This document shows positions 5,069-31,594 of a stretch of DNA of 56,683 nucleotides, piece by piece. Under the pieces are notes generated by a model. The model did no database searches. It was not told the origin of the DNA and saw only the letters and a list, made by a program, of their open reading frames with translations. Each line of letters starts with the position of its first letter. Within the stretch, counting starts at the first letter, position 1. A program made the translations under genes and the position numbers. Origin of the DNA: a virus (lineage: Duplodnaviria > Caudoviricetes); the IMG/VR virus record IMGVR_UViG_3300042922_001010, positions 1 through 56,683 of that record. One strand, given 5' to 3'.

Positions 5069-5749
5069 CTAGTTGGACTTGGGCTTGAGGCGGTCGTAGA
5101 ACGCCTGCTCCATGGCCGCGACGGAACCGCCGGTGCCGGGAGGGGTCTTGGACTGCCGGGAGAGCACGTCGCCGAGCAGATCGCCCGGAGGGGTGCCGTC
5201 GTTGCTGGCCCTCGGAGCGAGGGTGTTGGCGAACGTCTCGACCTTCGCGGCGTCGAGATTTCCGTCGGCGTCGATGAACTTCTGCACATCGATCACCTCG
5301 AGGACACCGTTCACGCGCGCGGCGGCATCTTCGGGGGTTTCGTCCGCGCCGCGGGTGCGGGCGACGAGGATGGCCTGGACCGCGGGCTTCGCGAACTTGT
5401 CGCGGGCGGCCTCGAATCCGGCGGTCTGCGCTTCCGTGCGCGCCTGGGCGAGCGCGCGGTCCGCGTCGCTGAGCGCTGCGGCTGCGGCGTCGTCTGCGGC
5501 AGTGAGCTTGGTGCGGACTTCGTCGACCGAGCCGAACTTGAGCCAGGGCGTGAGGTTCTTCTGCTGCTTCTTGGACTCGTGGCGCCAGTATTCCGCGCGC
5601 TGTTCGGGCGTCATGTCGGCGACCTTGGTCTCGACGGGGAAGTCGAACGTCTCGCCGTCGAGCGTCGGCTTCAAGGGCGGCGTGGTGCCGCCGGTGGGGT
5701 TCTCGCCGTCGAAGAAACGGAGCAGGAAGAAGGGTTTGCGAGTGAACAT
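5069..5749 (-). CDS. Scaffolding protein
   Basis: Helical Ala-rich; MTPEQRAEYWRHESKK motif; upstream of capsid. Confidence 0.8.
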   Translation of the reverse strand: MFTRKPFFLLRFFDGENPTGGTTPPLKPTLDGETFDFPVETKVADMTPEQRAEYWRHESKKQQKNLTPWLKFGSVDEVRTKLTAADDAAAAALSDADRALAQARTEAQTAGFEAARDKFAKPAVQAILVARTRGADETPEDAAARVNGVLEVIDVQKFIDADGNLDAAKVETFANTLAPRASNDGTPPGDLLGDVLSRQSKTPPGTGGSVAAMEQAFYDRLKPKSN

Positions 5750-5807: not shown

Positions 5808-6878
5808 TCAGGCCGCGTGGCGGCTGGCGCGTGCGATGAGGTCGCGGTGGTACTGGATGGCGGCGTCGATGTCCTTCACTGCGCGGGGGCTGCCGCTGCC
5901 GGCGATGTCGACGACGTTCGTGCCGCGGGACTTGGCGTTGAGCAAGTAGCGAATGGAGCGCTCGGACGTAGCGGCCATGGCTTTCCAGTTCCGCTCGTCG
6001 TCCTCGCGCGTCTGCCGCTTGAACGGCGTCGCCTTCGCGCTGTAGGTGGTGTCGCGGTTCACCTCGTCGAGCGTCCGGAACTTGGATCCCTGTCGGATGA
6101 GGATGGGACCGAGTTCGCCGTGCTCGTAGGACGTCACGCGGATGTTCTTGAGGCCCTGTCCTCCGGTGCCGCCGGCGGCCGCGTAGAGCGCGTCCAGGTC
6201 TTCGCGGTTGAGCTCGAGCCCGGGGTCGGACGTCGCAGTGACGGCGTCGACAGTGCACTTGCATCCGCCGTGGATCTCCATGAGGTCTTGGACGGAGTAC
6301 AGGCGGTCGGCGGCCACCATGCAGAGGCCGCACGTACCGGTGCGCGAGCGCTCCGGGTGGATGATGCGGCGGTAGCCGATCACCTTGGGCGAGGCGGCCA
6401 TGACCTTGTTCGTTTCGTCTCGCGCGGCCGCCTGGACGTCGGCCTCGACGATGCGCGTGAGGCGTTCGGTGAACGCTGCGTTGGCCTTTTCCGCGGCCTC
6501 GGCGGGCGACGCGCCCTGTTCAAGTTCACGCCGCTCGACGTAGTTCCGCTCGCGGGCAGGGCGCTGGTAGACGACAAGCTGCAGCGCCCCGCCGCGTTCG
6601 TAGGTGTTGACGGTCGGCGCCAGGCTGACGGGCGGGGCTCCGAGCTGTGCGAGCCGGGTGAGCATGTACCCGCGCGACATGCCGCGGACCTGAGCGAGAG
6701 CGACGTCCACGTCGACCGTGGAGCGTGCGGCGCGCGCGCGGACTAGGTCAGCGTCGTCCCACTGGTCGAAGCCGCCCCACAGCCCGAATAGCACCCGCAG
6801 AAGGGTGGCGAGGATGCTGGCCTGTGTCTTGGAGTAGGCGTCAACCGTTCGTCGGGTTTGATCCAGCGTTGTTGACAT
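5808..6878 (-). CDS. Capsid maturation / MuF-like minor head protein
   Basis: GYRRIIHPERSRTGTCGLC...IHGGCKC and HGELGP motifs; follows portal. Confidence 0.75.
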   Translation of the reverse strand: MSTTLDQTRRTVDAYSKTQASILATLLRVLFGLWGGFDQWDDADLVRARAARSTVDVDVALAQVRGMSRGYMLTRLAQLGAPPVSLAPTVNTYERGGALQLVVYQRPARERNYVERRELEQGASPAEAAEKANAAFTERLTRIVEADVQAAARDETNKVMAASPKVIGYRRIIHPERSRTGTCGLCMVAADRLYSVQDLMEIHGGCKCTVDAVTATSDPGLELNREDLDALYAAAGGTGGQGLKNIRVTSYEHGELGPILIRQGSKFRTLDEVNRDTTYSAKATPFKRQTREDDERNWKAMAATSERSIRYLLNAKSRGTNVVDIAGSGSPRAVKDIDAAIQYHRDLIARASRHAA

Positions 6879-8262
6879 CGTTGCCTCCTGCGGCGACCGC
6901 CGCCATGAAGGCTTCGGTCAATCGGTCTTGGTCGGCGAGGCGCATCTCGGCGGGCGTCATCTGCAGGACGTTCTCGTCGATCCAGCGCTGAGTCGCGCCG
7001 CCCGCCTTGAACTTCGGTGCGGACTCGGCACGTTCCGCGAGCGTCGCCGGGTTGACCGTGGCGAACATGACCTCGATCTGCGTGACGTCGGCGCGCACGA
7101 GATCACGCATCGCCTGGAAGCCGAGCGCCATGATCTGCGCCAGCGAGGCGCCGGCGCGGCGGTTCATCCGCTTGACCGCGAACACGAGCTGTTCTCGAGC
7201 GAGCTCGGCGCCTGTGGCGGACTGGTTCGCGGAATCGCCTTGGAAGACGTACTGCGGCGTCGCCGTGAGGGACGCGAGAGTCTCGACCTCTTGCTTGCGC
7301 GCGTCGTAGATGGGGCGGACGTCCGTGGGCGCTGACTCCCAGATCTTGGACGTCTCGGGAAGGAGCCACAGGGCCGACGGGCTCGCCTTGAACATCTCGT
7401 CGTAGTCGATGGCTTCACCCGCCTGCGGGTGGCCTTCCGGGTAGTGCGTCGGCATGGAGCCCTGGATGGCTCGCTGCCGGAACGACTGCATGACGATTAG
7501 GGTCAGCCCGTTCAGGGTGATCTCGTTGATGCGGTCGACGCTGTCGAGATGCTTCTCGTAGACGCCGTAGCCGTCGTGAGTGCTGACCTTTGTGAGCACG
7601 CAGTCGGTCGTCCAGGGAGTGCGAATCGGGTCGCTCGCCCATTCCCAGTCGGTCGACCCGTACCACGGGCTGCCGTCTTTCGGGAGCGTCGCGACGGGCG
7701 TGCGGCGGAACGCGACGCGGTAGTAGCCCTTGCGGAACAGTACGACCGTCTCGGCCTGGGCGACCTCGTCGTAGCCGACAGTGATGCCGGCCTCGGTGAG
7801 CCACGGGAAGTTCTGGTCCGCGATCGTCGCGGTGTCCCAACCGTTGCTGAGCTTGAACCGTGGCGCTCCGTCGGCGGCGAGCCACGTCGCGACATAGGAC
7901 GCGCCGTAGTCGGCCGTGTCGTTGAACATCTGCTCTGACTGCATGTCCATGCGGGACAGCACCCAGTTCCGCCAGGCGACTGTGTCGCCGGACTCGTCGT
8001 CGGTGGCCGCCGTGCGGAAGCCGAGGATCTCCTGGCGGTTGGTGCGCGCGTCGCGGATGGTCTCGACGACGTGGAGGCGCGACTTCCGCAGGAAGTTCAT
8101 GTACGAGTCCCGCATGCCGTCCCACATATTCACGGGGATGAGGGCGTCGCCGTCGCGGTACTTCGTCAGGCGGTGCATTCGCGGCAGACCTTCGCCGAGC
8201 TGGTTACACAGGCGGACGAGGTACCAGTCGTCCGTGCCCGGGACACTCGCGTTCACGAGCAT
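6841..8262 (-). CDS. Portal protein
   Basis: 473 aa directly after terminase; SPP1 gp6-like size and motifs. Confidence 0.9.
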   Translation of the reverse strand: MLVNASVPGTDDWYLVRLCNQLGEGLPRMHRLTKYRDGDALIPVNMWDGMRDSYMNFLRKSRLHVVETIRDARTNRQEILGFRTAATDDESGDTVAWRNWVLSRMDMQSEQMFNDTADYGASYVATWLAADGAPRFKLSNGWDTATIADQNFPWLTEAGITVGYDEVAQAETVVLFRKGYYRVAFRRTPVATLPKDGSPWYGSTDWEWASDPIRTPWTTDCVLTKVSTHDGYGVYEKHLDSVDRINEITLNGLTLIVMQSFRQRAIQGSMPTHYPEGHPQAGEAIDYDEMFKASPSALWLLPETSKIWESAPTDVRPIYDARKQEVETLASLTATPQYVFQGDSANQSATGAELAREQLVFAVKRMNRRAGASLAQIMALGFQAMRDLVRADVTQIEVMFATVNPATLAERAESAPKFKAGGATQRWIDENVLQMTPAEMRLADQDRLTEAFMAAVAAGGNDVNNAGSNPTNG

Positions 8263-8279: not shown

Positions 8280-10037
8280 TTATCGGACGCGGGTGGGCAA
8301 CTGCTGTTGCTTCTCCACGTGTTGCTTTCGGTAGCGCGCGGTCGCTTCGTACGCGAGGGCCATGCCGACGGCGGCGTCCATCTTGTGCATCGAGCCGTGG
8401 CGGTCCTTGCCGATGACGTAGCCGAACGTCTTGACCCAGCGGCGCGCGTTCATCACGTGCCGTGTGAGGGTTTTGTGGTTGCCGTGCCGGATGCGCCGGT
8501 CGGCGACCGCGGTGTGCGCGCGTTCGATGACCTTCGCCATCTGGACGTGCTGGGAGGTATAGAACGCGATGGGCTTCTCTTTGGTGGAGACGACCATGAG
8601 GTACGGCCCGAGGTCGCGTTCCCAGTTCTCGACGTAGTCGTCGAACCGGGGCGGGTCCGCGAGGAACCCGACGACCTTGTAGTCCTTGAACGTCTGCCGG
8701 ACGACGGCGTCGACCTCGGTCTTGTCGATGCGCCAGTGCTTCGCGGCCTTCGAGTCGGGCGCCTCCCAGATGCGGATGGGGAAGACGTAGCCGTCAGATA
8801 CTCGGCAGGCAATGAGCACGGTCGCGTCGCCAGACTCGGATCCGTCGAACCCGAGGGTGATGGTGTCGCCCTTGGCCGGCGGGCGCCAGTCGAGCTTCTG
8901 GCCCTTCACCTTCGCTTCGTTCAGCGCGTAGGCGAGGCCGATCCGCTGCCACTGGGCGATAGAGATCCACGAGTTTGCGTCCTCGACGAGCGCGTTGAAG
9001 AAGTATCGGCGCGTCTCGGTCTCGGACTGGTGCGTGTCGAACAGTCCGTCGAGCAGGTCGTCGACCGTCCACCAGCCCATGGCGTCGCCGTAGGCCTCGA
9101 TGAACGCGTCACCGAGGCGCTTGAGGTACTCCTCCTCGGTCTCCATTCGCGTTTCGTCGGGATGGTCCGGGTCGATGGGCACCTTCATGGGCTCGAGCGA
9201 CTCGACGTCGGCCCAGCGGTGATCGAACAGCAGGTTCGGGCGTCGTGCCTTGCCCTCCTGGATCATGTCCGCCAGGTGGTACGTCTCCTCGGCGATGGAT
9301 TCCTCGCCGGGCGCGTACATCGTGGTGGTCTCGATGTACCAGGTGCCGACCTTCTTCCGCTTGCGGAGGTTTCGGGACACCACGCGGAACATCTCGCGCA
9401 GCGTCGGCACGTTGTAGAGGTGGGTCTCATCGAACACGGCGAACGTCTCGAGCCCGCCGTCCTTCGACGCCGCTCCGGCGGTCGACGGCACGATGAGGTC
9501 GCGACGATTGAGCTGCACACGCGTCTTGCCCGGGTCGACGCCGTAGGCCGCCTTGAGCTGGAACAGCGGGGCTTCCTCGTCGGTCAGGTTGTAGTAGACC
9601 GAGTCGTAGGTGTTGCCCACCTGGCCTTCCTCGGTCGCCATGATGCGGACGTACGGGTTGTGCATCGGCTTGCCCATGGGCTCGCCGGCGCGGTACTCGT
9701 AGGTCTGGCCGAGGAACTCGTAGGTCTCGCCGCCTTTGGCCCAGCCGGCGAACCGGCAGGGGCCGAATGCCTCGAACAGCACGAGCGCCGCGGCGATGCC
9801 GGACTTGTCCGTGCCCTTCGGGCGCGAGAGGAAGGCGGAGCCGTAGAACCGGCGCCCGTTCTTGTCGAGCGCGTAGCAGTCGACGTAGAACTGGGTGTAC
9901 TCGTCGCCGTAGCGGATCGGCTGCCCCTGGGGGTCGCCGCGGCCGTGGACGACGAAGGACTCGATCCACCAGACGGCGAGCCATCCGAGTGACCGGTTCC
10001 GGTCGTGATCCGGGTGGGTGATGACGCGGCGTGGCAT
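8280..10037 (-). CDS. Terminase large subunit
   Basis: Walker A-like RPKGTDKS, Walker B AVFDETH, nuclease LGFDGS...D and KMDAAV; start MPRRVI. Confidence 0.95.
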   Translation of the reverse strand: MPRRVITHPDHDRNRSLGWLAVWWIESFVVHGRGDPQGQPIRYGDEYTQFYVDCYALDKNGRRFYGSAFLSRPKGTDKSGIAAALVLFEAFGPCRFAGWAKGGETYEFLGQTYEYRAGEPMGKPMHNPYVRIMATEEGQVGNTYDSVYYNLTDEEAPLFQLKAAYGVDPGKTRVQLNRRDLIVPSTAGAASKDGGLETFAVFDETHLYNVPTLREMFRVVSRNLRKRKKVGTWYIETTTMYAPGEESIAEETYHLADMIQEGKARRPNLLFDHRWADVESLEPMKVPIDPDHPDETRMETEEEYLKRLGDAFIEAYGDAMGWWTVDDLLDGLFDTHQSETETRRYFFNALVEDANSWISIAQWQRIGLAYALNEAKVKGQKLDWRPPAKGDTITLGFDGSESGDATVLIACRVSDGYVFPIRIWEAPDSKAAKHWRIDKTEVDAVVRQTFKDYKVVGFLADPPRFDDYVENWERDLGPYLMVVSTKEKPIAFYTSQHVQMAKVIERAHTAVADRRIRHGNHKTLTRHVMNARRWVKTFGYVIGKDRHGSMHKMDAAVGMALAYEATARYRKQHVEKQQQLPTRVR

Positions 10038-10039
10038 TG

Positions 10040-10549
10040 TCAGCCTCCCGTGCCGGTGATGCGGTCCCGTCGGTCGTTGAGCGAGGTGATGTTGTCGCTG
10101 ACGGGCCGGGCGTTGCCGACGCCGTACTCCTCGGGCACATCGACCTCGAGGCGGAGCTTGAGTCGGTCGCCGTAGGTGGCGCCGAACATGGCGACGCGGA
10201 TCCGGATTTCGGCCGCGCGCTCGGAGTTCTTCCCGCCGCTCATCCACATCTGGTGATGCAGGAGCGCGGTGTCGAGTAGGTAGTCCCAGTCGGGGGCGGT
10301 GAGCATGCGGGCGGCCTGCGGCGACTCGCGCCAGTTCTGCCACCACCGCACGGTCTGCGGGTGCCACTCCTCGCGCTGGATCTCGCCTTCCCAGTAGTCC
10401 GGGTCTTCGTCTTTCTTCTCGACGGGCGGAAGCACGTCGTTCGGGAGCGGGAACCCACCGAGCCGGCCGTCGGACTTGACGACGTCGCGCACTGCGTTGT
10501 CGCGCGCGCGGGAGCGGCTCGCGTTGGGGATCGGACCGTTACCGGCCAT
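10040..10549 (-). CDS. Terminase small subunit
   Basis: MAGNGP N-terminus; WHPQTVRWW, DWDYLLDTALLH, AAEIRIRVAMFGAT...DRLKLR. Confidence 0.9.
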   Translation of the reverse strand: MAGNGPIPNASRSRARDNAVRDVVKSDGRLGGFPLPNDVLPPVEKKDEDPDYWEGEIQREEWHPQTVRWWQNWRESPQAARMLTAPDWDYLLDTALLHHQMWMSGGKNSERAAEIRIRVAMFGATYGDRLKLRLEVDVPEEYGVGNARPVSDNITSLNDRRDRITGTGG

Positions 10550-11147: not shown

Positions 11148-11561
11148 CTAGGCGCGATGCTTAGCCGGGATGTTGTGCCAGATGACGGTCGACAGGTTGC
11201 CGATGAGCTCGGCGATGGACTCGGGATGCCGGTCCAGCCACCCGTGCGCGCGCTGCTTGCGACGCACTTTCGGTCGATGCCAGAGCAACCCGACGTGCGT
11301 GACCTCGTGGACGACCGTTGACAGTTCGACGGGCTGCGCGAGCATGATCGTCGCCTGCATGCCGTCGGCGTCTTCCTCGCCGTACGTCGTCGAGAACCCA
11401 TTGATGTCTTCGCGCTCAACTGCGCGCTGCAGCGCGTCACGGTCGTTGAAGACGAACACGCGGACACCGTGCTCGATGGAGTAGCGGCGTTCGCTGTCGA
11501 ACTCGCCGTGCCAAGCGACGTCGGCGGCCGGCCAGTGAAACATGACGTCGTCGTCGGTCAT
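11148..11561 (-). CDS. HEXXH zincin-like protein
   Basis: VVHEVTHVG motif with downstream E (PESIA). Confidence 0.65.
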   Translation of the reverse strand: MTDDDVMFHWPAADVAWHGEFDSERRYSIEHGVRVFVFNDRDALQRAVEREDINGFSTTYGEEDADGMQATIMLAQPVELSTVVHEVTHVGLLWHRPKVRRKQRAHGWLDRHPESIAELIGNLSTVIWHNIPAKHRA

Positions 11562-11863
11562 TCGGTGTCGTCGTCCTTCACGTTGCGGACCAGGAAGACC
11601 ATCCAGCCGAAACCGCGTGCGGTGTAGAGCCGGGGCGACTCGAGCAGGGCGTCGCGCAAGCGGTTCGCGGCCCACTCATAGGGCTTCGGCTCGGACGAGA
11701 ACGGATTGACGCGCTTCGCGAGGACGACGCGTCCGAGCATGCGATAGTCGAAGGCCTTCCAGACCGCCCGGGACGCCGTGAGGAGCCATCCGAACGCGAT
11801 GTAGACGACGACCAGACCCGGGATGATGCCGAGCCCAATCCAGAACTCCACGCCGGGCGCCAT
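11558..11863 (-). CDS. Hypothetical membrane protein
   Basis: N-terminal hydrophobic helix; overlap-coupled to neighbours. Confidence 0.65.
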   Translation of the reverse strand: MAPGVEFWIGLGIIPGLVVVYIAFGWLLTASRAVWKAFDYRMLGRVVLAKRVNPFSSEPKPYEWAANRLRDALLESPRLYTARGFGWMVFLVRNVKDDDTE

Positions 11864-12054
11864 CAGTCCTCGTCCAGCTTCGCGAGGGCGCCCTCGAGCG
11901 TCTTGCGGACGGCGGCGCGGATCTCTGAGGGGTTCACGACGACGTTGGTGCCCTGCACCTCGGACTCGTACGCTCCCCCGCCGATGGCGAGCGGCTCGCG
12001 GTCGGCGACCTGGATGAGCAGGGTGATGGGCGTGAGGAAGGTCTTGTGCTCCAC
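11863..12054 (-). CDS. Hypothetical protein
   Basis: GGAGG RBS before GTG. Confidence 0.6.
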   Translation of the reverse strand: MEHKTFLTPITLLIQVADREPLAIGGGAYESEVQGTNVVVNPSEIRAAVRKTLEGALAKLDED

Positions 12055-12112
12055 GAGTGGCCTCCGATTGGGCGGATTGAGCGTTTCGGCGTTACCCGCC
12101 GGTGGGAGAGGT

Positions 12113-12283
12113 TCATTTCCGATGTGGGCGGGGGCTGACTTCGGTCTCGGTGTAGCTGCGGGTGATGTGTCCGCAGTGACGTCGTTGGCAGATGACGACG
12201 ACTCTCCCTAGGGACTCGGCACCGTAGGCGTAGACGTGTTCGTATCGGTGTCCGAGCAGGCGGCAGAGGAATGGCGGGTTCAT
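12113..12283 (-). CDS. Small Cys/His protein (DUF1660-like), absent from ORF track
   Basis: AAGGAGAG RBS; MNPPFLCRLLGHRY...CQRRHCGH, 56 aa. Confidence 0.65.
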   Translation of the reverse strand: MNPPFLCRLLGHRYEHVYAYGAESLGRVVVICQRRHCGHITRSYTETEVSPRPHRK

Positions 12284-12527
12284 CGGTCTCTCCTTGTCGG
12301 CACGACGGTCGGACGATGAGCGATCTGCTGATATTCAGCGGATATAAGTCAGTTCGCGAAGCCGTCGGCGAGAGCGAGCCATGCCGACGAGCCCGCACCC
12401 GATGCCGGCGCACGCGAAGACGAACGAGACGAGGCTGAGAAGCAGGGCGGGATGCAACGTGCGCCTCCGAATCGCGGGCGGATCAATACCCCCCAGACCC
12501 GCGCGCACCGCGAGGGACAGAACGGAG

Positions 12528-12760
12528 CGGGCGGGGAGGCAGGGGTGGGGCGGGGGGTGGGTGCCCCGGGGTGCGTGGGGTGTCAAGCGGCTGGACAGTG
12601 TGCGTGTGTCGCTGTGTCAAGTGACGCGACAGTGTCGGGGTGTCTGTGTGTGCGTCGCTGTGTGGGTGTCAGGGGTGCGCGACAGGGGCAGGGTGTCGGC
12701 ACTAGCTGTGTGCGTGTGGGTGCGCGTCGCTGTGTCTGTCCCCTATGGGTGTGCCAATGC
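12528..12760. repeat. G-run tract plus GTGTC/TGTG imperfect repeats; probable genome-end or packaging region
   Basis: Non-coding, strand-skewed low-complexity tract upstream of the late/terminase block. Confidence 0.6.
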
Positions 12761-12792
12761 CGGCGCGGGAGTCCCCTGCCACGCATCCCGAA

Positions 12793-12821
12793 TTGACAAT
12801 GCATACGCGTGTGGGTAATGT
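12793..12821 (+). promoter_or_regulatory. Near-consensus SigA promoter driving the plus-strand island
   Basis: TTGACA-17 nt-TAATGT. Confidence 0.8.
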
Positions 12822-12876
12822 GGAGGTATCGACAAGGGCTGAGCCAAGCGGCCCCGATACGGAGGGACTACACACA

Positions 12877-13398
12877 ATGAGTGAGAGAAGAAGATTCGAG
12901 ACCGTCGTTATCCTGCGGGATGGTCTGCCGGTAGCTGTCACGGCGAATGAGTCGGAAGCGCTGGCATGGTTCCAGGGTGAGCACTCGTTCTCCATGAGCC
13001 ACGCACTCGAGCACGAGGGATACGCCATCGTCACCGAGGGGGACACTGTCGCGGGCCGCGCAACGGTCACCGGATGGATGGCATTCCAGCTAGCCTCCAC
13101 GCGTCGCGGGTACGGCGTACCGGGAGCGCTTGCGCGTCTCGCCGTGGCTATTCAGGGCACCATCGCGGCGTATGACCAGGACGGCGCCAAATTGGCGGAC
13201 GCTCCGGCCGGACGCGCTGAGAACGTAGACCCGTACACGCGTGATGCCCTTGTGCCCATGCTGTCGGCATTCATCGAACTACTGAGTAACACGGGCGCGG
13301 CAGAGTCGGCGGGCGCATTCGACGCCATCCGCGGGGATCTCGACGCGTGGGCGCGTGCCGCGGCGGAGCGTATCGGCGCGGACGGCGACGCGCTGTGA
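12877..13398 (+). CDS. Hypothetical protein
   Basis: GGAGGG RBS; first gene after the promoter. Confidence 0.7.
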   Translation: MSERRRFETVVILRDGLPVAVTANESEALAWFQGEHSFSMSHALEHEGYAIVTEGDTVAGRATVTGWMAFQLASTRRGYGVPGALARLAVAIQGTIAAYDQDGAKLADAPAGRAENVDPYTRDALVPMLSAFIELLSNTGAAESAGAFDAIRGDLDAWARAAAERIGADGDAL

Positions 13399-13673
13399 GC
13401 GGCGGCGTAATGCCGACGGGCGCTACGCCCGTGGCGGAGCTGGAACGGATCGCCTCCGAGTACCCGAGCCGGGACGGTCGCGGCTACGTGACGGGGTTCT
13501 ACGTCGTGCGGCGCGGTCTCCACTCCGGTACGGAAGCGGGACCGTTCGCGACGATGGAAGCGGCAGAGACCGCCCGCTCGGAAGCGGTAACGCTTGACGT
13601 TCTCGCGATCATCTGCGGGCACGTGTTCACAGAACGCGGCACCATCGTTCGCGCGCCGGCGGGCACATTCTGA
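13395..13673 (+). CDS. Hypothetical protein
   Basis: GTGA overlap with upstream gene. Confidence 0.55.
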   Translation: MSGGVMPTGATPVAELERIASEYPSRDGRGYVTGFYVVRRGLHSGTEAGPFATMEAAETARSEAVTLDVLAIICGHVFTERGTIVRAPAGTF

Positions 13674-13781
13674 GGGCAGCGTTTCACCTACCGACGTAGC
13701 GCGGTAGGTGGGCCGGTGTCGGACAGACATCACTCATTCCCCGGTGAGCCAAGCGCCGGGACGGATCGGAGGGAACGGACC

Positions 13782-14222
13782 ATGTCCGCAGATAGGGAAG
13801 ACGTTGCCCGCATGGTTGCGGCCGTCGACAGGGGTGCGCGTTGCGAGATGTGCGGCGGTTCGCGAGTCGTGCATTTCGGCGGCGGGGCATCCGCGCCGTG
13901 CATCGTTTGCGATTCGGCGTATGCGGCCGCGCCGGTGCGCGCTGTGAGCGTGCGACGCGCTGAGGAGATCCAAGCCGGGGCCAAGCGGGCGCGGCGGCGG
14001 TTCGCGGTCGCGGTCGCTATTGCGGCCGTCGTGGCGGTCATCGTGCCTATGGCTGTGTGGGCGACGGTGGCGCATGCGCGCGACCCGCGCGGAGGGTTGC
14101 CCGCGTGCGTGACGGAGGATGCGCGAGATTGCTATTGGGATGCGTCCGAGCACGGGAACGGGGCCGGGCGGTCATTCACTGACCGCGCTGGCGTCGTGAC
14201 GTTCTGGGAGGCGGGACGATGA
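13782..14222 (+). CDS. Membrane protein with CxxC motifs and C-terminal LPACVTEDARDCYWDA domain
   Basis: RBS; one hydrophobic helix; C-terminal motif seen in actinophage proteins. Confidence 0.7.
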   Translation: MSADREDVARMVAAVDRGARCEMCGGSRVVHFGGGASAPCIVCDSAYAAAPVRAVSVRRAEEIQAGAKRARRRFAVAVAIAAVVAVIVPMAVWATVAHARDPRGGLPACVTEDARDCYWDASEHGNGAGRSFTDRAGVVTFWEAGR

Positions 14223-14821
14223 CGCGCGCGGACGTTGACGCGTGGAACGCGTACGTTGCGGGCGAGGTCGCGCGATTCTTCCAGCACTGTGAGGGCACTA
14301 CCTACATTTGGCAGGCCACCCCGGAAGCAGAACGGGCGATTGCGCGGAATGGCGGGGACTCCGAGCGGGCGGCATTCACCGGACCCTGGCACATCATCCG
14401 GAAGCACTTGACGACGGAATTCCGTCAGTGGGTGGAGGAGTACGAGGGGACCGAGCGCATTACGCCGACCGAGTGGCGCGCACGGCAAGTTGCGGGACGC
14501 GCTGAGGTCGCATGGATGGATTCCGCCGACTACAGCTTGGGACAGCTTGAGGAGCTCCGGCGACTCACCGCGGAGCGGGACGCCATCATCGTGGAAGCCG
14601 CGCGACGCGGCGCAACCAAAGTCTCTATTGCGCGTGCCGTGGGCCTGTCGCGTCAGCAGATACACACCATCGTTGCGGCCGCCGAGGTTGCGCCGGCGGA
14701 GGTGCTTGCACCCGTCACGCCGATCCGGCGGGAAGTTGCGCCCTCCGCGGAAGTTGCGGCCCCGGATGAGTCCGGCGAATGGCTGCAGACGGCATCCGGC
14801 GAATGGGTCGAAGTCTTCTGA
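14219..14821 (+). CDS. Two-domain protein with C-terminal HTH
   Basis: RDAIIVEAARRGATKVSIARAVGLSRQQIHTI helix-turn-helix. Confidence 0.75.
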   Translation: MTRADVDAWNAYVAGEVARFFQHCEGTTYIWQATPEAERAIARNGGDSERAAFTGPWHIIRKHLTTEFRQWVEEYEGTERITPTEWRARQVAGRAEVAWMDSADYSLGQLEELRRLTAERDAIIVEAARRGATKVSIARAVGLSRQQIHTIVAAAEVAPAEVLAPVTPIRREVAPSAEVAAPDESGEWLQTASGEWVEVF

Positions 14822-14920
14822 CGCACGCGGCGCGACCGGTCCAGCCGGCGGAGACCTGCGAGGGCTCACGCGCCACTCATCCCCGAGCCAAGCGGGGACG
14901 GATCGAAGGGAAGTTGCACC

Positions 14921-15328
14921 ATGGGCGAACCGATTGCCGCGACGGGATTCGACACATATCCGGACGACCGGGGCACGCTATTGCGCGTATACCACGTTGA
15001 GGCCGGTCGACGCGGTGACGCGGTCGCGGCTATCTCGCTCAGCGACGACGCGCGCGACGCTCTCCTGGGAGAACTTGCGCTAGCGATGGGGGCGCTGGAT
15101 TGCGATGAATCGACGCCCGAAGGTCTGGCGGCTCTGACGGATGCCGTCGCTCGTGTGACCGCGGCGCGGGACGCAATCAGGCGGGTTGAGTCCGAGCTGT
15201 CGATGCGGATGGTCCGGGCGCATCACGGCGCGCGGATCTTTGAGCGCGGGACGTCCCGGTATGTTTGCACGCTTGTCAAAGGTCACCAGGGGCGTTGCAG
15301 GAACACGGCGACAGGGATCGAAGCGTGA
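14921..15328 (+). CDS. Hypothetical protein
   Basis: GAAGGG RBS; C-terminal CxxxxGHxGxC. Confidence 0.65.
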   Translation: MGEPIAATGFDTYPDDRGTLLRVYHVEAGRRGDAVAAISLSDDARDALLGELALAMGALDCDESTPEGLAALTDAVARVTAARDAIRRVESELSMRMVRAHHGARIFERGTSRYVCTLVKGHQGRCRNTATGIEA

Positions 15329-15624
15329 TCTGGGAAGTTGCATCCGGCGGCCGACTGGCGACCATCTACGGCACGCACCCGGTCCTAGTTGCACTGGATC
15401 TCGGGACGCTCGAATTGCACGCTGAGCCGGTGGCGGAAGGCATCGTTCCCGTGTTCGATGACCCGTTCACCACGTACCGCGTTGCGGGTTGCGAGGTGAC
15501 CGTCTACGCGGCGAATTGCGACGGCGCGGTGATGCGCGGCGGGGAATTGCACTCCGAGCTGCGGGACTGGATTGCGGCGCGCTACGGCGTGCACCGGTGG
15601 TCGGATCCGCAGTGGAGAAGATAG
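15325..15624 (+). CDS. Hypothetical protein
   Basis: GTGA overlap with upstream gene. Confidence 0.55.
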   Translation: MIWEVASGGRLATIYGTHPVLVALDLGTLELHAEPVAEGIVPVFDDPFTTYRVAGCEVTVYAANCDGAVMRGGELHSELRDWIAARYGVHRWSDPQWRR

Positions 15625-15764
15625 CGCCGCCCCGGGAGCCTGAGCGTCACCGGGGCGGGCATGGAATGGTGCCAACGGCCAAGTTGCACCATCCCGGGTG
15701 CCGATCGAAGGGACCGAGCGTGCAGGAGTCTACATTGCGGCGACCTGCGTGGGACACTGGAACG

Positions 15765-15965
15765 GTGACCGTCCAGTACCTCTCATTGCAGGAATTTGCC
15801 GAGCGTATCGGCGTCTCCCGCGGTGCCCTCGCGGGGTACAAGTTGCCGGAACCGGACGTCCGTGTGGGGTCCGCGGCGAACTCGCCTCGAGGGTGGTCCG
15901 AGGAGACCATCGACGCCTGGAACAAGTCGCGCCCGGGGCGTGGCCGGTGGGGTTCGCGCGAGTGA
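15765..15965 (+). CDS. HTH DNA-binding protein (AlpA-like)
   Basis: YLSLQEFAERIGVSRGAL...LPEPD...GWSEETIDAWNKSRPGRG. Confidence 0.8.
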   Translation: MTVQYLSLQEFAERIGVSRGALAGYKLPEPDVRVGSAANSPRGWSEETIDAWNKSRPGRGRWGSRE

Positions 15966-16018
15966 AGTCTGCCGCGATGGGGGCCGCTCTTTGCGCGCCC
16001 GCACGTTCGCGGAAGTTG

Positions 16019-16092
16019 CGACCTCGACCGGACTCGAACCGGTAACCTCCCGCGGGACAGGCGGGCGCTCTGAGCCATTGAGCTACGGGGCC
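16019..16092 (-). tRNA. tRNA-Asp(GTC), atypical
   Basis: TAGCTCAATGG D-arm, CCCGC-CTGTCCC-GCGGG anticodon arm, GTTCGAGTC, G73; one acceptor mismatch. Confidence 0.8.
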
Positions 16093-16104
16093 AGGGGTGG
16101 ATTG

Positions 16105-16177
16105 CTCGCGCGGCTGGGATCGAACCAGCGCGCTCCCGATTAACAGTCGGGCGCTCTGCCATCTGAGCTACGCACGA
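16105..16177 (-). tRNA. tRNA-Asn(GTT)
   Basis: TAGCTCAGATGGCAGAGC D-arm, CCCGA-CTGTTAA-TCGGG anticodon arm, GTTCGATCC. Confidence 0.9.
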
Positions 16178-16483
16178 TCAGGCCAGTAGGCCCGGGTGCC
16201 GGCGTGCCGGCTCTTTGCGGCGGTTGCCGCGTCCGCCCTCGGCGGATGACTTGCGTTGGTGGTGCCACTGGCACAGCGATTGCAGGTTCGCGTCGCTGTG
16301 GTCGTCGCGGCGTTCCTGGTCGATGTGGTCGACCTGGTTCGCGCGGGCGCCACAGATGCGGTTGCGGTCGCTGCGGATGTGCTGGCACTGGTGGTGGTCG
16401 CGCGCGAGGATGCGCGGGCGGATCACCTTTTCCCAGTTTGGCGGGAGGGTGTCCTTGCGAGTGCTGCCCTGCCAGTTCGGCAA
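16178..16483 (-). CDS. HNH endonuclease (packaging-associated type)
   Basis: RILARDHHQC...C...VDHI...NLQSLCQWHH. Confidence 0.9.
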   Translation of the reverse strand: MPNWQGSTRKDTLPPNWEKVIRPRILARDHHQCQHIRSDRNRICGARANQVDHIDQERRDDHSDANLQSLCQWHHQRKSSAEGGRGNRRKEPARRHPGLLA

Positions 16484-16498
16484 GTTGCACCCCCTAGG

Positions 16499-16789
16499 TC
16501 ACTGGTTGAACCAGAATGCTCCGATGATTGCCGCGAGGACGCCGAGTACGATGCCGACTCGAGCTAGCCAGACACCGGCGAGATGCTGGCGGGTTGCGAT
16601 TGCCCCGCCGGCGATGCCAAGAGTGATTGCCGCTGCGGACGCGATGAACGCGAACGGCGCATAGCGCGCTTCGACCGTGACGGTCAGTAGCAGGCCGACG
16701 ATTCCGAGCACGAGCGCCGCGACGGCGATGCCGCTGAGTCCCTGGTTCTCGGTGTCGGCCTCGGCTGCGTGCTGATCTCCCACGGTCAT
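16499..16789 (-). CDS. Membrane protein (DUF4190-like)
   Basis: Three hydrophobic segments; AVAALVLGIVG. Confidence 0.65.
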   Translation of the reverse strand: MTVGDQHAAEADTENQGLSGIAVAALVLGIVGLLLTVTVEARYAPFAFIASAAAITLGIAGGAIATRQHLAGVWLARVGIVLGVLAAIIGAFWFNQ

Positions 16790-16821
16790 GCGGGCATCCT
16801 CGCACGGCGCCATTCCGGACG

Positions 16822-16947
16822 CTAGTTCACGGAGCGGTAGAACGCGCCGGCGGCGCGGTCTTCGGCGTCGGAGCGATCCTGGTCAGCGCATTCCTCGGCG
16901 CGCAGCTTGGACGGCCACTCGCCGCCGCATTCGGGGCACGGGCTCAC
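16822..16947 (-). CDS. Small CxxC protein, absent from ORF track
   Basis: GGGGGAG RBS; MSPCPECGGEWPSKLRAEECADQD..., 41 aa. Confidence 0.5.
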   Translation of the reverse strand: MSPCPECGGEWPSKLRAEECADQDRSDAEDRAAGAFYRSVN

Positions 16948-17043
16948 GTCACTCCCCCGTCGCGTTCGGACCGGCCTGGGATTCCACCAGGCACTCGACC
17001 TTGCAGGGCCAGGGGCATGCGTCGTTGCACATGGGCGCGCCTT

Positions 17044-18189
17044 TCAGAGCACAGTGAGGGATTGCATGTTGAAGCCGTCGTCCGTGATGTCGAACAGCAG
17101 CAGTCCGGGGTCGGAGTCGTCGCCGGCGATGTTGCGGAACCAGTCGGATCCGTTGTCGAGCGTCGGCGCCTGCAGCCACCACTTGCTCCGCCCGCTGTGG
17201 GGGTTGCGGCCAGTCGGGAGGACCGACAGGTGGTGGTAGTGGCCGGTGATGAGGATGTCCGCAGCGCCGACGGGCTGGCCGCCGTGCGTCTGCTTCGCCC
17301 ACCATTCCGGCGCCTTGCCGGGACGGAACTGATTGCCGTGCGCGAGGCCGACCTTCGTGCCGCGGACGTCGACCACCATGGACTCGTCGTACATCGGCGG
17401 GAACTGCCACGTTGCGTCGAGCCCGGCAGCCTTGGCGACCTTCTCGACCTGCTTGTGCACGAAGATCCCAAGGTCGTCGCCCGGGCGTCCGAGGTTCGTC
17501 GAGCCGCGCCGCCAGGCGGTGTGATTCGACGGGACGCACGCGAGGGTGACCGGTCCGAATCGGGCCGCGACCTTCACGAACTCGTAGAGCTCGGTCGCGA
17601 CGAGATCCATCTGCTGCGACAGCGACAGGTCGTTCGTGAACATGGGGTTACCACCGGACTCGAAGTTCTCGAACAGGTCGTTGATGTCGGGCATGAACAC
17701 GGCGTCGGGCTTGCGGCGCTTGAGCTCCGCGGTGAGCAGCGCGCGCTTCTCGGAGAGACGGTCGATGAGCTCGGGCGTCCCACCGCGGGATCCGACCTTG
17801 CCTGCCTGTACGTCAGCGATGACCGGAACGGATGTCTTGCCGCTCGAGGCGGTGACGAGTCGCGGTGCGGGTTTCCGTCTCGCAGTGGCGTACAGGGCAG
17901 GCAGGTCGTGGTGTGTGGACCGTCGCCGGAACTGGGCACGGTAGGAGTAGAGGTCGATGACGTCGCGGTCACCGTTCTCGGTCCGCTTGGACTGTTGCCA
18001 GGTGGAGCACCGGACGGTGTCGTCGACCACCTCGAAGACGTCGGGGTCCAGGTTGAACCGGCGGAAGACGTCGGTCCAGTCCGTGATGGGCGTCTCGGAG
18101 CGGATGCCGGTGAACTCGCCGCCGTCGGGGCCGAACTCGGCGCGGGCGGTGTTCTCGGGCTGGGTGTCTATGCGGTCGGCGAGGCTCAC
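17044..18189 (-). CDS. Calcineurin-like metallophosphoesterase (Mre11-like)
   Basis: DVQAGK, D..E, PSNH, AHG and GHYHH motifs. Confidence 0.85.
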   Translation of the reverse strand: MSLADRIDTQPENTARAEFGPDGGEFTGIRSETPITDWTDVFRRFNLDPDVFEVVDDTVRCSTWQQSKRTENGDRDVIDLYSYRAQFRRRSTHHDLPALYATARRKPAPRLVTASSGKTSVPVIADVQAGKVGSRGGTPELIDRLSEKRALLTAELKRRKPDAVFMPDINDLFENFESGGNPMFTNDLSLSQQMDLVATELYEFVKVAARFGPVTLACVPSNHTAWRRGSTNLGRPGDDLGIFVHKQVEKVAKAAGLDATWQFPPMYDESMVVDVRGTKVGLAHGNQFRPGKAPEWWAKQTHGGQPVGAADILITGHYHHLSVLPTGRNPHSGRSKWWLQAPTLDNGSDWFRNIAGDDSDPGLLLFDITDDGFNMQSLTVL

Positions 18190-20216: not shown

Positions 20217-20500
20217 GCGTTCCGCTCGGCGAGCCGGAGGAGCGTGGACTGAGCGTGGGTGCCGAAGTAGCCGGAGTGCGCCGCGCTGCGGAGGGCTGCA
20301 GCGCGCGCTCGGGCGGCGTGAGCCGCCAGGAGACTCGCGACGAACTTGTCGCACTCGTCGTTCGTCTCCTGGCGGACCCGTACCCACTCGGCGGAAGGGA
20401 TGAGCTCGTGCCAGACGTCGCCAATCTGGTTCACGATATTCCGCGCGACCGCCAGCGCTGCCTCGTCGACAGTGGCGACGTCTGCGGGAGTGTCAGCCAC
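20213..20500 (-). CDS. Hypothetical protein
   Basis: Overlap-coupled to the NAMPT-like gene. Confidence 0.6.
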   Translation of the reverse strand: MADTPADVATVDEAALAVARNIVNQIGDVWHELIPSAEWVRVRQETNDECDKFVASLLAAHAARARAAALRSAAHSGYFGTHAQSTLLRLAERNA

Positions 20501-21998
20501 GCTCGTTCTCCCACTCGGCGGCGAGCACCGCGCGCACCTCGGCGAAGGACTGGTAGCGGAGGAACTCGCCGTTCTCCCAGACGGGCTGCAGCAGCGACCC
20601 GGCTTCCGCTTCCGGCGACGCCGACTGGATGAGCGTCGGCTCCCCGAAGATGTCGCGGGTGACGGCGAGGCGGCCGGTGGCGCTGCGCTTGAGTCCGCTG
20701 TCGGTGACCGGGTTTTTCTGGATGTCGCGGCCCTCGCCGTCGATCTCCACCCACGTCGCCTTCATGGCCGACCCGAACGTGTCGCGCGTGACGTACTGGT
20801 AGCTGTAGCTCCCGACGCCGAACACGACGTTGCTCGAGGCGAAGCCCTTCGCGGCGAGGCGCTCGACGATGACCTCTGCGCGCTCGAGCGTGATGCTGTC
20901 GCCGTAGATGGTCCCGATGTGCGGGTCCAGCACCTTGTAGCCCTCGGCGTTCACGGTGCCGCCGAACGTCTCCCAGAGGAGCTCGACGACGCCCTTGTCG
21001 GCCGGCGTGCGGGCGGCGTCGAGCGAGGCCGCCCATCCGTCGCGGCCCGCGAGGATCTCGACGGGGTCGCCGGAGTCGGGTCGGATGACGACCTTGCCGT
21101 CGCGGCCCACGATGTCGTCGCGCAGCGCGGGCAGGATGTTCGTCAGCACGTTCCAGAGATCCCACGTGTCGCTGACGATGCTCACGATGCCGGACGGGTA
21201 CAGGTCCAGCAGTCGCGAGTACGTGTCGAACTCGTCGGCCTCGCCGCCCGCGCACATGACCGAGTGCTCGGTGGCCGGGACCGATACGAGTACGAGCCCG
21301 TTGTCCCCGGCGTAGTAGCGGCGGATCCAGTCCAGCGCGGCGAGGGTGTCGCTGCCCTTGAAGCTGAGGAGGTGGCCGGCTGCGGATGCGGCCGCGGCCT
21401 CCATGCCCGCCATGCCGCGAAAGCTGAAGTCGTGGAGCTGGAAGTCGACGGACGCGGGGTCCGCGCCGGTGACGTCCGCGGCCTCGTCGAGCAGCACGCG
21501 GTACTGGTGCGCGATGGTCGCCGTGGTCGACGGGTGCCACACGGACGCGCTGAGCACCGTCTCCACGAAGTTCGTCAGCCAGAAGAACTCGGGCAGGGTG
21601 TTCTCGACTGTGAACGACGGCACGCGGAGCGGCACGAGCGTCCCTTCGGGGACCGCGGCGAATCGGAGCGGGAGGTACCCGAGTCGGTGGAGCGCGCGGA
21701 TGTGGTCGCTGCCGACCTCGTTCGGTCCGACGATGGACAGGATGGCGCCTTCGTACTCGCGGGCGACGTCGTCCTCGTCCGCGGCGAAGAACGGCGCGAA
21801 CGCCTCGATGCAGTAGCGCTGCAGGAACGCTTGCAGCCCGAAGTGCACGACCTTGTCGATGCCGGGGATGCGGCTGCCGCGGTTCGTGAAGTTCGAGTAC
21901 ACGCGGGTCGTGCCCTCGGGGTACTGGCGGCGGTGGTCGATCTTGTAAGCGTCCGACGCGAGGAGCGGGGCGATGGGGCTTGCTGAGGTGATGGTCAC
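20493..21998 (-). CDS. Nicotinamide phosphoribosyltransferase-family protein (candidate Namat of NARP1)
   Basis: DAYKIDH, LHDFSFRG, SVPATEHSVMC, SIVSDTWD, IRPDSGDP, IYGDSIT, FGVGSY motifs. Confidence 0.92.
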   Translation of the reverse strand: MTITSASPIAPLLASDAYKIDHRRQYPEGTTRVYSNFTNRGSRIPGIDKVVHFGLQAFLQRYCIEAFAPFFAADEDDVAREYEGAILSIVGPNEVGSDHIRALHRLGYLPLRFAAVPEGTLVPLRVPSFTVENTLPEFFWLTNFVETVLSASVWHPSTTATIAHQYRVLLDEAADVTGADPASVDFQLHDFSFRGMAGMEAAAASAAGHLLSFKGSDTLAALDWIRRYYAGDNGLVLVSVPATEHSVMCAGGEADEFDTYSRLLDLYPSGIVSIVSDTWDLWNVLTNILPALRDDIVGRDGKVVIRPDSGDPVEILAGRDGWAASLDAARTPADKGVVELLWETFGGTVNAEGYKVLDPHIGTIYGDSITLERAEVIVERLAAKGFASSNVVFGVGSYSYQYVTRDTFGSAMKATWVEIDGEGRDIQKNPVTDSGLKRSATGRLAVTRDIFGEPTLIQSASPEAEAGSLLQPVWENGEFLRYQSFAEVRAVLAAEWENERG

Positions 21999-22855
21999 GC
22001 GATGTATCCGTTCAGGGTCGATGCGAGCGGGATGACGTTGAGGTCGTCCCCTGGGAAGTGCGGCGAGGGGTAGGAGTCGGTCGTCCACACCTCGCCGTAG
22101 TGGGTGCGGAGGTTGTGGGGTGCACCGCCGGAGAACACGCCGTGGCTCACGTAGAGACCGAGTCGCTCGCGGGGCAGGCCGGTCGCTTCCGCGAGTCCCA
22201 TGAACGTGCCGCCCCCGTCGCAGATGTCATCCACGATGAGGAACCGGCCGTAGTCGGGCAGGGGCTCACAGGTGAAGCCGGATAGCTTGCCGGTGTCGGG
22301 GTCGCGTCGCTTCTCCGCCCGGTAGAGCGGCAGATGCGTCGCGGCCGCTACCTTGGCCGCCCGGTCCACGGCGCCCTTGTCCGGCGCGATGATGCCGTCG
22401 TAGCGCTGTGGGCCGCCGCGGTCCGCGTGACCGACGATGTGTCGGCGCACGAGCCGCGTCGGGTCGACGACGACGACGTTCCGCAGCATCGACGGCATGG
22501 CCGGGCTGTGCGGGTCGAAGCAGACGACTCGGTCGACGGAGAGCGAGTTGATGAACTCGGCGTACACCGATGCTCCCCGCGGCACGAAGTCTTCATGGTC
22601 AGCGCGCGCGCCCGGAAGGTACGGGAGCAGCAGCACCGTATCCGCGCCGCGGCGGTAGGCGGCGTCCGCCCACATCCCGAGCGCGAACAGGTCGTTCCCG
22701 TCGGCACCGTAGAGCCGGGCGACCTCCGTCAGCGTCCCCTTCCCGTCGTTCTCGTTGACGACCTTGATGTGGGACTCGCCAGCAGGGAAACGCATGGCCT
22801 CGAACGTCGGCGTCGTCGTGAAGCCGGGTCCGATTCGGGTTGAGAACTCGATCAA
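21995..22855 (-). CDS. Ribose-phosphate pyrophosphokinase-family protein (candidate Adps of NARP1)
   Basis: FPAGE, LPYLPGARAD, DPHS, APDKGA, IVDDICDGGGTF, VSHGVFS motifs. Confidence 0.92.
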   Translation of the reverse strand: MIEFSTRIGPGFTTTPTFEAMRFPAGESHIKVVNENDGKGTLTEVARLYGADGNDLFALGMWADAAYRRGADTVLLLPYLPGARADHEDFVPRGASVYAEFINSLSVDRVVCFDPHSPAMPSMLRNVVVVDPTRLVRRHIVGHADRGGPQRYDGIIAPDKGAVDRAAKVAAATHLPLYRAEKRRDPDTGKLSGFTCEPLPDYGRFLIVDDICDGGGTFMGLAEATGLPRERLGLYVSHGVFSGGAPHNLRTHYGEVWTTDSYPSPHFPGDDLNVIPLASTLNGYIA

Positions 22856-31322: not shown

Positions 31323-31594
31323 CGCATGGAGCCTTTCGCGGTCAGAGCGTCGAAGATGGGCGTTCCTTCTTCCGGCACCACCGATTTCGTCATCAGGACA
31401 CCCTCCGAGCCCGGTTCGTAGGACAGCGTGAGCGTCCGCGTCGGCGGCATGACGTAGTCGGAGAACCACGTCTGAATCGCTTCCTGAACCTCGTAATCGA
31501 CGTGATCGGGGATCTCGATCACGAGACGGCATAGGGCGCCGTCGCTGCCGCGGTAGTAACCCGTCAGCGGGGCAACCTGCACTCCGTCCTTCAC
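31319..31594 (-). CDS. Hypothetical protein
   Basis: GTGA overlap; TPIFDAL C-terminus. Confidence 0.55.
   Translation of the reverse strand: MKDGVQVAPLTGYYRGSDGALCRLVIEIPDHVDYEVQEAIQTWFSDYVMPPTRTLTLSYEPGSEGVLMTKSVVPEEGTPIFDALTAKGSMR

Follow-up and report, generated by a model that had tools for sequence, protein, structure and literature searches.

Repeats at or just upstream of ribosome-binding sites have been reported in Cluster K mycobacteriophages and Cluster EF Microbacterium phages as start-associated sequences and extended start-associated sequences (SAS and ESAS; PMC3203893, PMC7302621). Their function is called untested in the accessible parts of those papers, and this is still so in the accessible part of a 2025 survey of 188 Cluster K genomes (PMC12699233). 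Here we describe a leader element of another kind, a small hairpin with a sequence-constrained loop placed shortly before a Shine-Dalgarno (SD) box and a start codon, in the complete virus record IMGVR_UViG_3300042922_001010. The record, analyzed at its full length of 56,683 bases (67% G+C) and hereafter called the window, represents a whole temperate Microbacterium phage; the host genus is assigned because the relatives found are Microbacterium prophages. The hairpins belong to an island of seven small plus-strand genes at 12877-15965, which is flanked by two pairs of minus-strand tRNA genes.

As far as the available text of the SAS/ESAS reports describes them, those repeats and the leader element share a single orientation, a conserved SD box, an inverted-repeat feature immediately 5′ of that box and conservation before unrelated genes. 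However, ESAS have conserved 17-bp imperfect arms around a variable spacer, whereas here the arms vary at six to seven of seven pairs and conservation lies in the loop; SAS have the consensus GGGATAGGAGCCC or GGGAAAGGACCCC, and the box found here, (A)TCGRAGGGA, is unlike both; and SAS are present in 10-19 copies across a genome, compared with 3-5 in one island. The phages that carry SAS/ESAS also differ in lineage and lifestyle from the one studied here. The PeSL (promoter-early stem-loop) cassettes of T4-like phages, to the extent set out in the consulted part of Arbiol et al. 2010 (PMC2839356), likewise place a promoter, stem-loop, SD and start before small non-essential genes, and in both cases the region is hyperplastic, with neighboring genes shuffled between relatives. 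In PeSL cassettes, though, the conserved part is the sigma-70 promoter, around which the stem-loop forms a terminator, and every cassette has a strong promoter; in the leader element the loop is conserved, the hairpin lies downstream of the -10 hexamer, and only the first copy has a promoter (both island copies in one relative, G003). Cluster EG Microbacterium phages are described, in the part of PMC7302621 at hand, as carrying an 18-bp inverted repeat, GATCAACCNNGGTTGATC, which we also saw directly in the sequence of phage OneinaGillian. This repeat likewise lies 14-22 bp upstream of the points where small, leftwards-transcribed genes at the genome's right end begin, and one of the genes that it precedes shares a C-terminal domain with gene 3 of the window. 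Its arms are conserved around a 2-nt spacer, as in a palindromic duplex-type site, in contrast to the variable arms and conserved loop of the element described here.

The lambda nut site shares with the leader element an RNA hairpin whose loop differs between related phages and is read by its sequence, as we propose for the loop here, and a copy near the transcript start. BoxB, its hairpin, has a 5-bp stem and a GNRA-like pentaloop and occurs once per operon without a tie to the SD, whereas the loops here are 7-10 nt long, every unit has its own copy some 20 nt ahead of the start, and there is no conserved N-like gene. The operators of MS2-type coat proteins and the Escherichia coli thrS operator offer a likeness of mechanism only, namely a specific loop on a free stem next to the ribosome-binding site; in such hairpins the bound protein competes with the 30S subunit, and each is a single copy with a known protein. 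Cluster A stoperators, to which the immunity repressor binds, are asymmetric duplex sites of ∼13 bp that occur dozens of times. Compared with these stoperators, which are named in the accessible text of PMC3203893, the copies here are few, their arms covary and their internal wobbles are U·G only, features that point to a folded single strand. No description of the leader element was found in the literature searched; the repeat motifs of Clusters EC and EI (PMC7302621) were outside this comparison and might bear on the likeness.

The original prediction, made from the letters of the window, had proposed three hairpins with one invariant 9-nt loop, GAGCCAAGC, ahead of gene starts, and these are present at 12841, 13746 and 14885. 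When the motif was counted across the genome against background as had been proposed, GAGCCAAGC had four exact matches, all on the plus strand (the fourth at 45607), with 0.48 expected and none of 100 shuffles reaching four, while one-mismatch variants were not enriched (18 found and 17 expected). The loop proper is shorter: when copies 1-3 are folded, the G and C at the two ends of the 9-mer pair with each other, so the true loop is the 7-mer AGCCAAG on a G-C closing pair. The three stems, of 6-7 bp, are unrelated to one another (GGGCUG/CGGCCC, CCCGGUG/CGCCGGG and UCCCCG/CGGGGA for hairpins 1, 2 and 3). Each is followed by GAUACGGAGGGA or GGAUCGRAGGGAA and then an ATG (12877, 13782 and 14921). 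The conserved ribosome-site box (C)GRAGGGA lies 4-9 nt 3′ of every hairpin with the ATG 21-22 nt on, in agreement with the prediction. All of these features are on the plus strand. Hairpin 1 (12826-12860) has an outer stem (12826-12831/12855-12860), an inner stem (12836-12841/12849-12854) and its loop at 12842-12848, and leads into the box GATACGGAGGGA and the ATG of gene 1 (12856-12879). Hairpin 2 (13740-13760, loop 13747-13753) precedes the box GGATCGGAGGGAA and the ATG of gene 3 (13763-13784), and hairpin 3 (14880-14898, loop 14886-14892) precedes the box GGATCGAAGGGAA, then AGTTGCACC and the ATG of gene 5 (14900-14923).

Two further proposals about these leaders fared less well. The upstream CACTCAT does precede copies 2 and 3, but it is not significant by itself (eight in the genome compared with 3.9 expected; 5 of 100 shuffles reach eight). 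The supposed loop variant GAGCCTGAGC at 15636 was rejected as a copy of the motif, as it forms the loop of a separate, long GC hairpin of 9 bp after gene 6 (CCGCCCCGG-N14-CCGGGGCGG, 15627-15658, plus strand), which is kept in relatives with different loop sequences. The real variant lies at 15666-15692 (plus strand), where a stem of ATGGTGC/GCACCAT encloses the larger loop CAACGGCCAAGTT (15673-15685), followed by the box GATCGAAGGGA (15703-15713) and the GTG start of gene 7 at 15720.

The same module occurs in the syntenic small-gene island of thirteen related proviruses, prophages and contigs. A search of IMG/VR with the large terminase (TerL) identified three near-complete proviruses (G002-G004) with TerL 65-67% identical, each with a syntenic island harboring homologues of genes 2, 4 and 7, and a search with an alignment of the gene-4 family (A1) added eight Microbacterium prophage loci, one further IMG/VR contig and metagenome contigs. 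The exact GAGCCAAGC was found in none of the five records of TerL relatives, which carry their own loops instead. The element is kept in, rather than missing from, the orthologous leaders of the 13 related sequences, and so it passes the refutation test on conservation that the original prediction had set. Hairpin scans yielded 34 small-loop hairpins in 14 distinct sequences, window included, with the duplicates L053 (same as G004) and L068 (same as L064) counted once with their partners; the scan found no small-loop hairpins in L056 and L069. A motif-plus-box pattern scan of IMG/VR returned eight loci, all of them low-GC chance matches without hairpins, and these were discarded.

Loop lengths are 7, 8 or 10 nt, and the loops fall into classes by lineage: AGCCAAG (three hairpins in the window, two in L049 and three in L052), AGGCCAAG (four each in L050 and L051), AGACCAAG (four in L067 and one each in L066 and L065), AAGTGAAACA-like (three in G002, two in G004, two in L054, two in L055 and four in L064) and AGTCGAGA (two in G003, plus one outside the island). 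Within a genome, loops of the AG(N)CCAAG classes are identical (3/3 in the window, 2/2 in L049, 3/3 in L052 and 4/4 in each of L050, L051 and L067, with L066 and L065 having one each), and the 10-nt loops of the AAGTGAAACA class vary at one position at most; the three hairpins of G002 all have AAGTGAAACA, and those of G004 have AAGTGGAACG and ACGTGGAACG. AGCCAAG is found in all eight hairpins of three phages whose gene-4 (g4) proteins share just 68-73% identity. A ribosome-site box of the type (C/T)GRAGGG lies 3′ of 30 of the 34 hairpins, and an inferred start codon, opening a frame of at least 40 codons, lies 9-31 nt after the stem in 31 of them (median 20). Genes of the gene-7 (g7) family, in all 13 relatives, stand behind a hairpin that holds the lineage's own motif inside a larger loop (..GGCCAAG.., ..GACCAAG.., ..GGTGAAACA.., ..TGTGGAACG.. 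or ..GTCGAGAC..). The genes between modules differ in family and order among relatives, as seen in island maps of the 14 sequences. The gene-3 family, for example, comes before g4 in the window, L050 and L051 and after it in L052 and L067, always behind a hairpin. Because these genes differ and change order, the island acts as a variable region with standard leaders.

Covariation was assessed in ungapped alignments of 7 nt, loop and 7 nt, with 500 shuffles and with controls in which the pairing partners were slid. In the AGCCAAG class (8 hairpins), six of seven pairs have changed on both sides, with 87.5% of cells paired as compared with 55.6% when shuffled; in the AGG/AGACCAAG class (12 hairpins), five of seven have done so with 89.3% paired; and in the AAGTGAAACA class (13 hairpins), all seven have done so with 90.1% paired. 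Shuffled alignments of the three classes have 56-62% of cells paired, and no shuffle among 500 reaches the observed covariation score in any class, although these counts are not probabilities because the hairpin copies are related. The argument is carried instead by the changes on both sides and by the slid controls, in which paired cells fall to 15-54% in all three classes. To identify the folding strand, we examined 35 instances (37 regular-expression matches with two coding-region non-members set aside) for internal non-Watson-Crick positions flanked by pairs at stem positions 1-6, and found seven U·G, two A·A and no A·C. Since U·G pairs would be A·C mismatches on the other strand, it is the plus, mRNA-sense strand that folds. 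The stem covariation in three loop classes and the U·G-only wobbles uphold the proposal of a structured element with a sequence-constrained loop, most simply a site for binding; it is very probably a conserved, folded, sense-strand leader motif, and we infer that it acts as RNA rather than as plus-strand single-stranded DNA (ssDNA).

A covariance model built from six hairpins (R1) recovers eight held-out copies with E-values of 0.0002-0.07 in 321 kb. In whole host genomes at E ≤ 0.01, it matches only at places in known prophage loci (two in G006, three in G009 and one in G008), and in 151 sampled Microbacterium genomes it gave two matches, both already known, which as a sample is not proof of absence elsewhere. 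With filters off, R1 has three significant matches in the window, all within 12.8-14.9 kb: hairpin 1 (45.8 bits, E 1e-9), hairpin 3 (47.7 bits) and hairpin 2, which was outside the seed and is still recovered (27.9 bits, E 6e-5). The fourth exact 9-mer, which had been counted as a further copy before another gene, does exist at 45607-45615 (plus strand), but it folds differently, in a stem that includes GAGC, lacks a ribosome-site box and scores 8.8 bits (E 6.8) in a loop-only match with filters off. It is probably a chance match and not a family member, one extra chance 9-mer being unremarkable. Rfam matches only tRNAs in the window, with nothing at the hairpins at E ≤ 5.

Two possible RNA partners of the loops were tried. 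Pairing with 16S rRNA is rejected, since the longest complements in two Microbacterium 16S rRNA genes are 5-7 nt, and among 200 shuffled loops 57-200 do as well or better. A trans-acting RNA with a complementary loop is not evident: the 9-mer has no minus-strand copy, and the single one of the 7-mer lies outside any loop. Separately, a fourth exact GATCGAAGGGA was seen at 40749-40772 on the minus strand, preceded by CCAAGG and a 7-bp hairpin. This site, which has no start codon at the usual distance and scores 10.3 bits with R1 (E 2.7), is possibly related to the leader but decayed or non-coding.

The first copy adjoins a putative sigma-70-type promoter for the island, read from the sequence as TTGACA (12793-12798), a 17-nt spacer and TAATGT (12816-12821) on the plus strand. 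A consensus promoter scan of 11500-16600 returned no sites; it missed this one because TAATGT matches TATAAT at only three of six positions. The outer stem of hairpin 1 begins 5 nt after the -10 hexamer, and in relatives the first hairpin is immediately preceded by an equivalent -35/-10 pair. A TANNNT hexamer lies 2-19 nt upstream of 10 of 33 hairpins, one per genome and in each case the first of its island, and in these ten genomes a TTGACA-like hexamer lies 17 nt further upstream. For the other 23 hairpins no TANNNT was found within 35 nt; these are intercistronic and often follow a GC hairpin that lacks a U tract. In the window, one such GC-rich hairpin, CACCTACCG-N8-CGGTAGGTG, was read from the sequence after gene 2 (13685-13710, plus strand). 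Only copy 1 of the window has the promoter, while both island copies of G003 carry the same one. The promoter-proximal stems of the AAGTGAAACA class (GTGTCGG/CCGACAC) are conserved across genomes. A scan for intrinsic terminators found no terminator-like sites in 11500-16600, and the leader stems are followed by ACGGAUCG without a U run.

Further features were seen in the relatives. The 17-nt promoter spacers of AAGTGAAACA-class relatives are palindromes of the form ACACACACGG/CCGTGTGT (L054 ∼5180-5225, L055 ∼4090-4135, L064 ∼1215-1260 and L063 ∼4125-4170), which look like a duplex operator inside the promoter. A second intergenic piece, ..CGCGTAGGCG..CGG(T/A)TCACGACCG.., lies upstream of several internal hairpins in L063, L054, L064 and L067, with faint echoes in the window (ACGTAGCGCGG at 13694 and GGCTCACGCG at 14861). 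The third AGTCGAGA hairpin of G003 (L042), at ∼12291 on the plus strand with the shared CCTAGATC..AGAG box, is not in the island but precedes a different gene on the provirus's other strand.

Taken together, the hairpins and the relatives' own loops point to what may be an undescribed, phage-specific control of island gene expression. Our preferred reading, to which we give a probability of about 0.5, is that each hairpin belongs to a leader module that acts in cis as RNA, and that a factor specific to the lineage docks on its loop and would set the translation or the stability of each unit. The module consists of a GC-rich stem of any sequence, a constrained loop, a spacer of 4-9 nt, an SD box ((C/T)GRAGGGA) and, some 20 nt beyond the stem, a start. 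Each expression unit of the variable small-gene island, which in this temperate Microbacterium phage family runs opposite to most genes, is headed by one module; the first would lie at the 5′ end of the primary transcript or adjacent to it, and the remaining ones are intercistronic. On the loop a trans-acting factor would dock, in all likelihood a protein of the phage, which from its place just 5′ of the ribosome-binding site would set translation initiation of all units together and possibly also mRNA decay that depends on the 5′ end, notably for the 5′-terminal copy. A lineage-specific reader is suggested because the loop is near-uniform in each genome, differs from one lineage to another and persists where the stem has turned over completely, and control of translation initiation is suggested because the position just 5′ of the ribosome site is fixed before every unit. 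A more tentative extension is that the loops form an RNA ‘address code’, in which each lineage's RNA-binding regulator would read its own loop (AGCCAAG, AGGCCAAG, AGACCAAG, AAGTGAAACA, ACGTGGAACG or AGTCGAGA) on every unit of the island.

Several observations weigh against this reading. No trans-acting factor emerged among the island proteins from comparisons of g4 and g7 or from a structure search. Only these two, g4 with a helix-turn-helix (HTH) and g7, occur in every island, and their identity matrices follow the broad loop classes only as shared descent predicts and do not separate the AGCCAAG, AGGCCAAG and AGACCAAG subtypes. The recognition helix of the g4 HTH is invariant across loop classes, and the AlphaFold model of g4 (mean predicted local distance difference test score (pLDDT) 78.8) has no match in PDB at E ≤ 0.001, and so none to a solved RNA-binding protein. 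The folding energies of the three hairpins are at the level of shuffled sequences (z of -1.10, +0.13 and +1.35), so the evidence for the element is the conserved loop and covariation rather than stability. The window has just three canonical copies and one large-loop variant. Promoter-proximal copies in L054, L055 and L064 have a degenerate box without a nearby start, and because they lack a proper box and start, the hairpin can exist uncoupled from a ribosome site. Finally, the shuffled gene content between modules also fits a passive role at cassette boundaries.

That passive role is the strongest of the alternatives, though we consider it rather unlikely. The hairpin would then be a PeSL-like stabilizer of 5′ ends or intercistronic regions, an attenuator or an insulator at the boundary of an exchangeable module, its loop would not be read, and identical loops within a genome would result from copying of the leader when modules are gained or moved. 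The reordering of gene families such as gene 3 relative to g4, each behind a hairpin, agrees with this, as do the sigma-70-like promoter next to the first copy and the same promoter at both island copies of G003. T4-like PeSL cassettes also join promoter, stem-loop, SD and start in hyperplastic regions, as described in the available part of PMC2839356. Copying, however, would bring the stems along, whereas stems from the same genome share almost nothing while their loops are identical. Nor would a simple stabilizer need a specific loop of 7-10 nt, let alone one kept in 8/8 hairpins of three phages with g4 proteins 68-73% identical, and conserved patches of 7-10 nt and ∼10 nt would seem very short for homologous recombination.

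The original prediction had named a boxB/nut-like antitermination signal beside a translational operator. With a phage protein on the nascent hairpin, the polymerase would read through the GC hairpins between units, and a lineage-specific loop on a free stem does follow the logic of N and boxB. The first copy is promoter-proximal, GC-rich hairpins occur between units at 13685-13710 and 15627-15658, and the start of gene 1, MSERRRFE, is weakly arginine-rich. Yet neither GC hairpin has a U tract and no U-tract intrinsic terminator was found in 11500-16600, the loops are not pentaloops, and gene 1 lacks a homologue in the three full-length relatives, so that the first site is not followed by a conserved N-like gene. 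For antitermination, a single site at each promoter would also be enough. The coupling to a ribosome-site box and start, together with one copy per expression unit, favors a role in translation or stability, because boxB/nut would need neither, and we regard antitermination as improbable. Slightly less probable still is an asymmetric, stoperator-like operator in duplex DNA, at which a phage protein such as g4 or g7 would recognize the ‘loop’ sequence and thereby block or tune how the island is transcribed. This would suit an orientation-specific and lineage-specific site in short intergenic gaps, the DNA-binding types of both all-island proteins, and the promoter-proximal copies, which lie across the predicted start site and whose stems are conserved in the AAGTGAAACA class (GTGTCGG/CCGACAC); but it leaves unexplained the covarying flanking arms and the U·G-only wobbles of the sense strand, and the g4 recognition helix stays constant across loop classes. 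Least probable by some way is a signal for recombination or replication on ssDNA, such as an attC-like site, a transposase hairpin or a priming site, whose plus-strand fold would mediate cassette exchange. The free stems, the cassette-like intervening genes and the covariation tests are all compatible with folded ssDNA. However, family scans found no recombinase or HUH/Y1 transposase in the island, the fixed spacing to SD and start and the sense orientation suit an mRNA element and not a recombination site, and an element of 19-26 nt lacks the conserved stem-base boxes that define attC.

The gene island itself consists of gene 1 (12877-13398; 173 aa, without a family match), gene 2 (13410-13673), gene 3 (13782-14222), which encodes a zinc-ribbon and membrane protein, gene 4 (14219-14821), which overlaps gene 3 and encodes the HTH protein, gene 5 (14921-15328), gene 6 (15325-15624), which overlaps gene 5, and gene 7 (15720-15965), which encodes a small basic protein of DNA-binding type. 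Third-position G+C (GC3) is weaker in these genes than in the remainder of the genome. Apart from the HTH and DNA-binding matches, searches of Pfam, PHROGs, PADLOC and NCBIfam gave no informative function for them. A nucleotide search of the island against 50,697 phage records returned tRNA matches only or none; the best TerL match in that collection is 44% identical, and a close relative is absent there. Locus searches with the single proteins of genes 3 and 5 found no relatives. The gene-4 family (alignment A6) has a conserved tail, ...GEWVEVF, after a linker that is predicted to be disordered (pLDDT <50 at residues 161-185), and in the model this tail looks like a short docking peptide.

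Most genes of the window are on the minus strand according to a GC3-based gene reading and PHROGs, including those for the portal (6841-8262), large terminase (8280-10367), tyrosine-type integrase (43093-44535) and tape measure (53313-56498). The integrase gene adjoins a partial tRNA at 44538-44600 (minus strand, 34.4 bits in Rfam), which is likely the attP (phage attachment site) core for integration into a host tRNA gene, and the same region has a gene for an ImmA-like metallopeptidase (42565-43035, plus strand). The minus strand also encodes an RNA ligase, a polynucleotide kinase/phosphatase and a nicotinamide phosphoribosyltransferase (NAMPT) at 31591-34230 and 20493-22088, which together with the four tRNA genes make up a set for RNA repair and salvage of nicotinamide adenine dinucleotide.

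Two further sequence features lie in or next to the island. TTGC and RTTGCR pile up on the plus strand of the window at 13800-18000: in each of the four bins between 14 and 18 kb TTGC has a density of 13-18 per kb, compared with 3.5 per kb genome-wide, and 34 of 52 copies of RTTGCR are within that zone, while the reverse complement GCAA is not enriched. The motifs occur in all codon phases and extend into minus-strand genes, with (A/G)TTGCA directly 3′ of many ribosome-site boxes, and the zone from gene 4 onward is also enriched in L050, L052, L062, L063, L064 and L067, in all loop classes. One possibility is a set of sites that bind proteins or relate to replication. Upstream of the island promoter, between divergent gene sets, a G/T-rich non-coding tract (12500-12760) contains repeats of GGTGTCAAG/GTGTCGG and (G)TGCGTCGCTGTGT (repeat family D1), and TGTCAAG resembles the Cluster A stoperator core. 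Operators or the end of the genome may lie in this tract.

Catalogues of start-associated repeats in actinobacteriophages go back to 2011, with no mechanism reported in the accessible literature on them. The leader element offers a clean case: it is small, its folding as a single strand is supported by covariation, the folding strand has been identified, and the loop changes as a block between lineages. Its carriers include prophages of culture-collection strains, in records titled Microbacterium trichothecenolyticum DSM 8608 and M. binotii JCM 16365. Even without a loop-specific factor, the element would still be a new structured leader motif for RNA family databases, and with such a factor it would add a new layer to the control of phage genes and provide an orthogonal RNA-protein pair of compact size. 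If the loops do serve as an address code, regulator and loops would co-evolve and define post-transcriptional specificity groups, comparable to the immunity groups of N/boxB or repressor/operator pairs. This would be a type of control not described for actinobacteriophages, and it could explain repeats of the SAS/ESAS type too.

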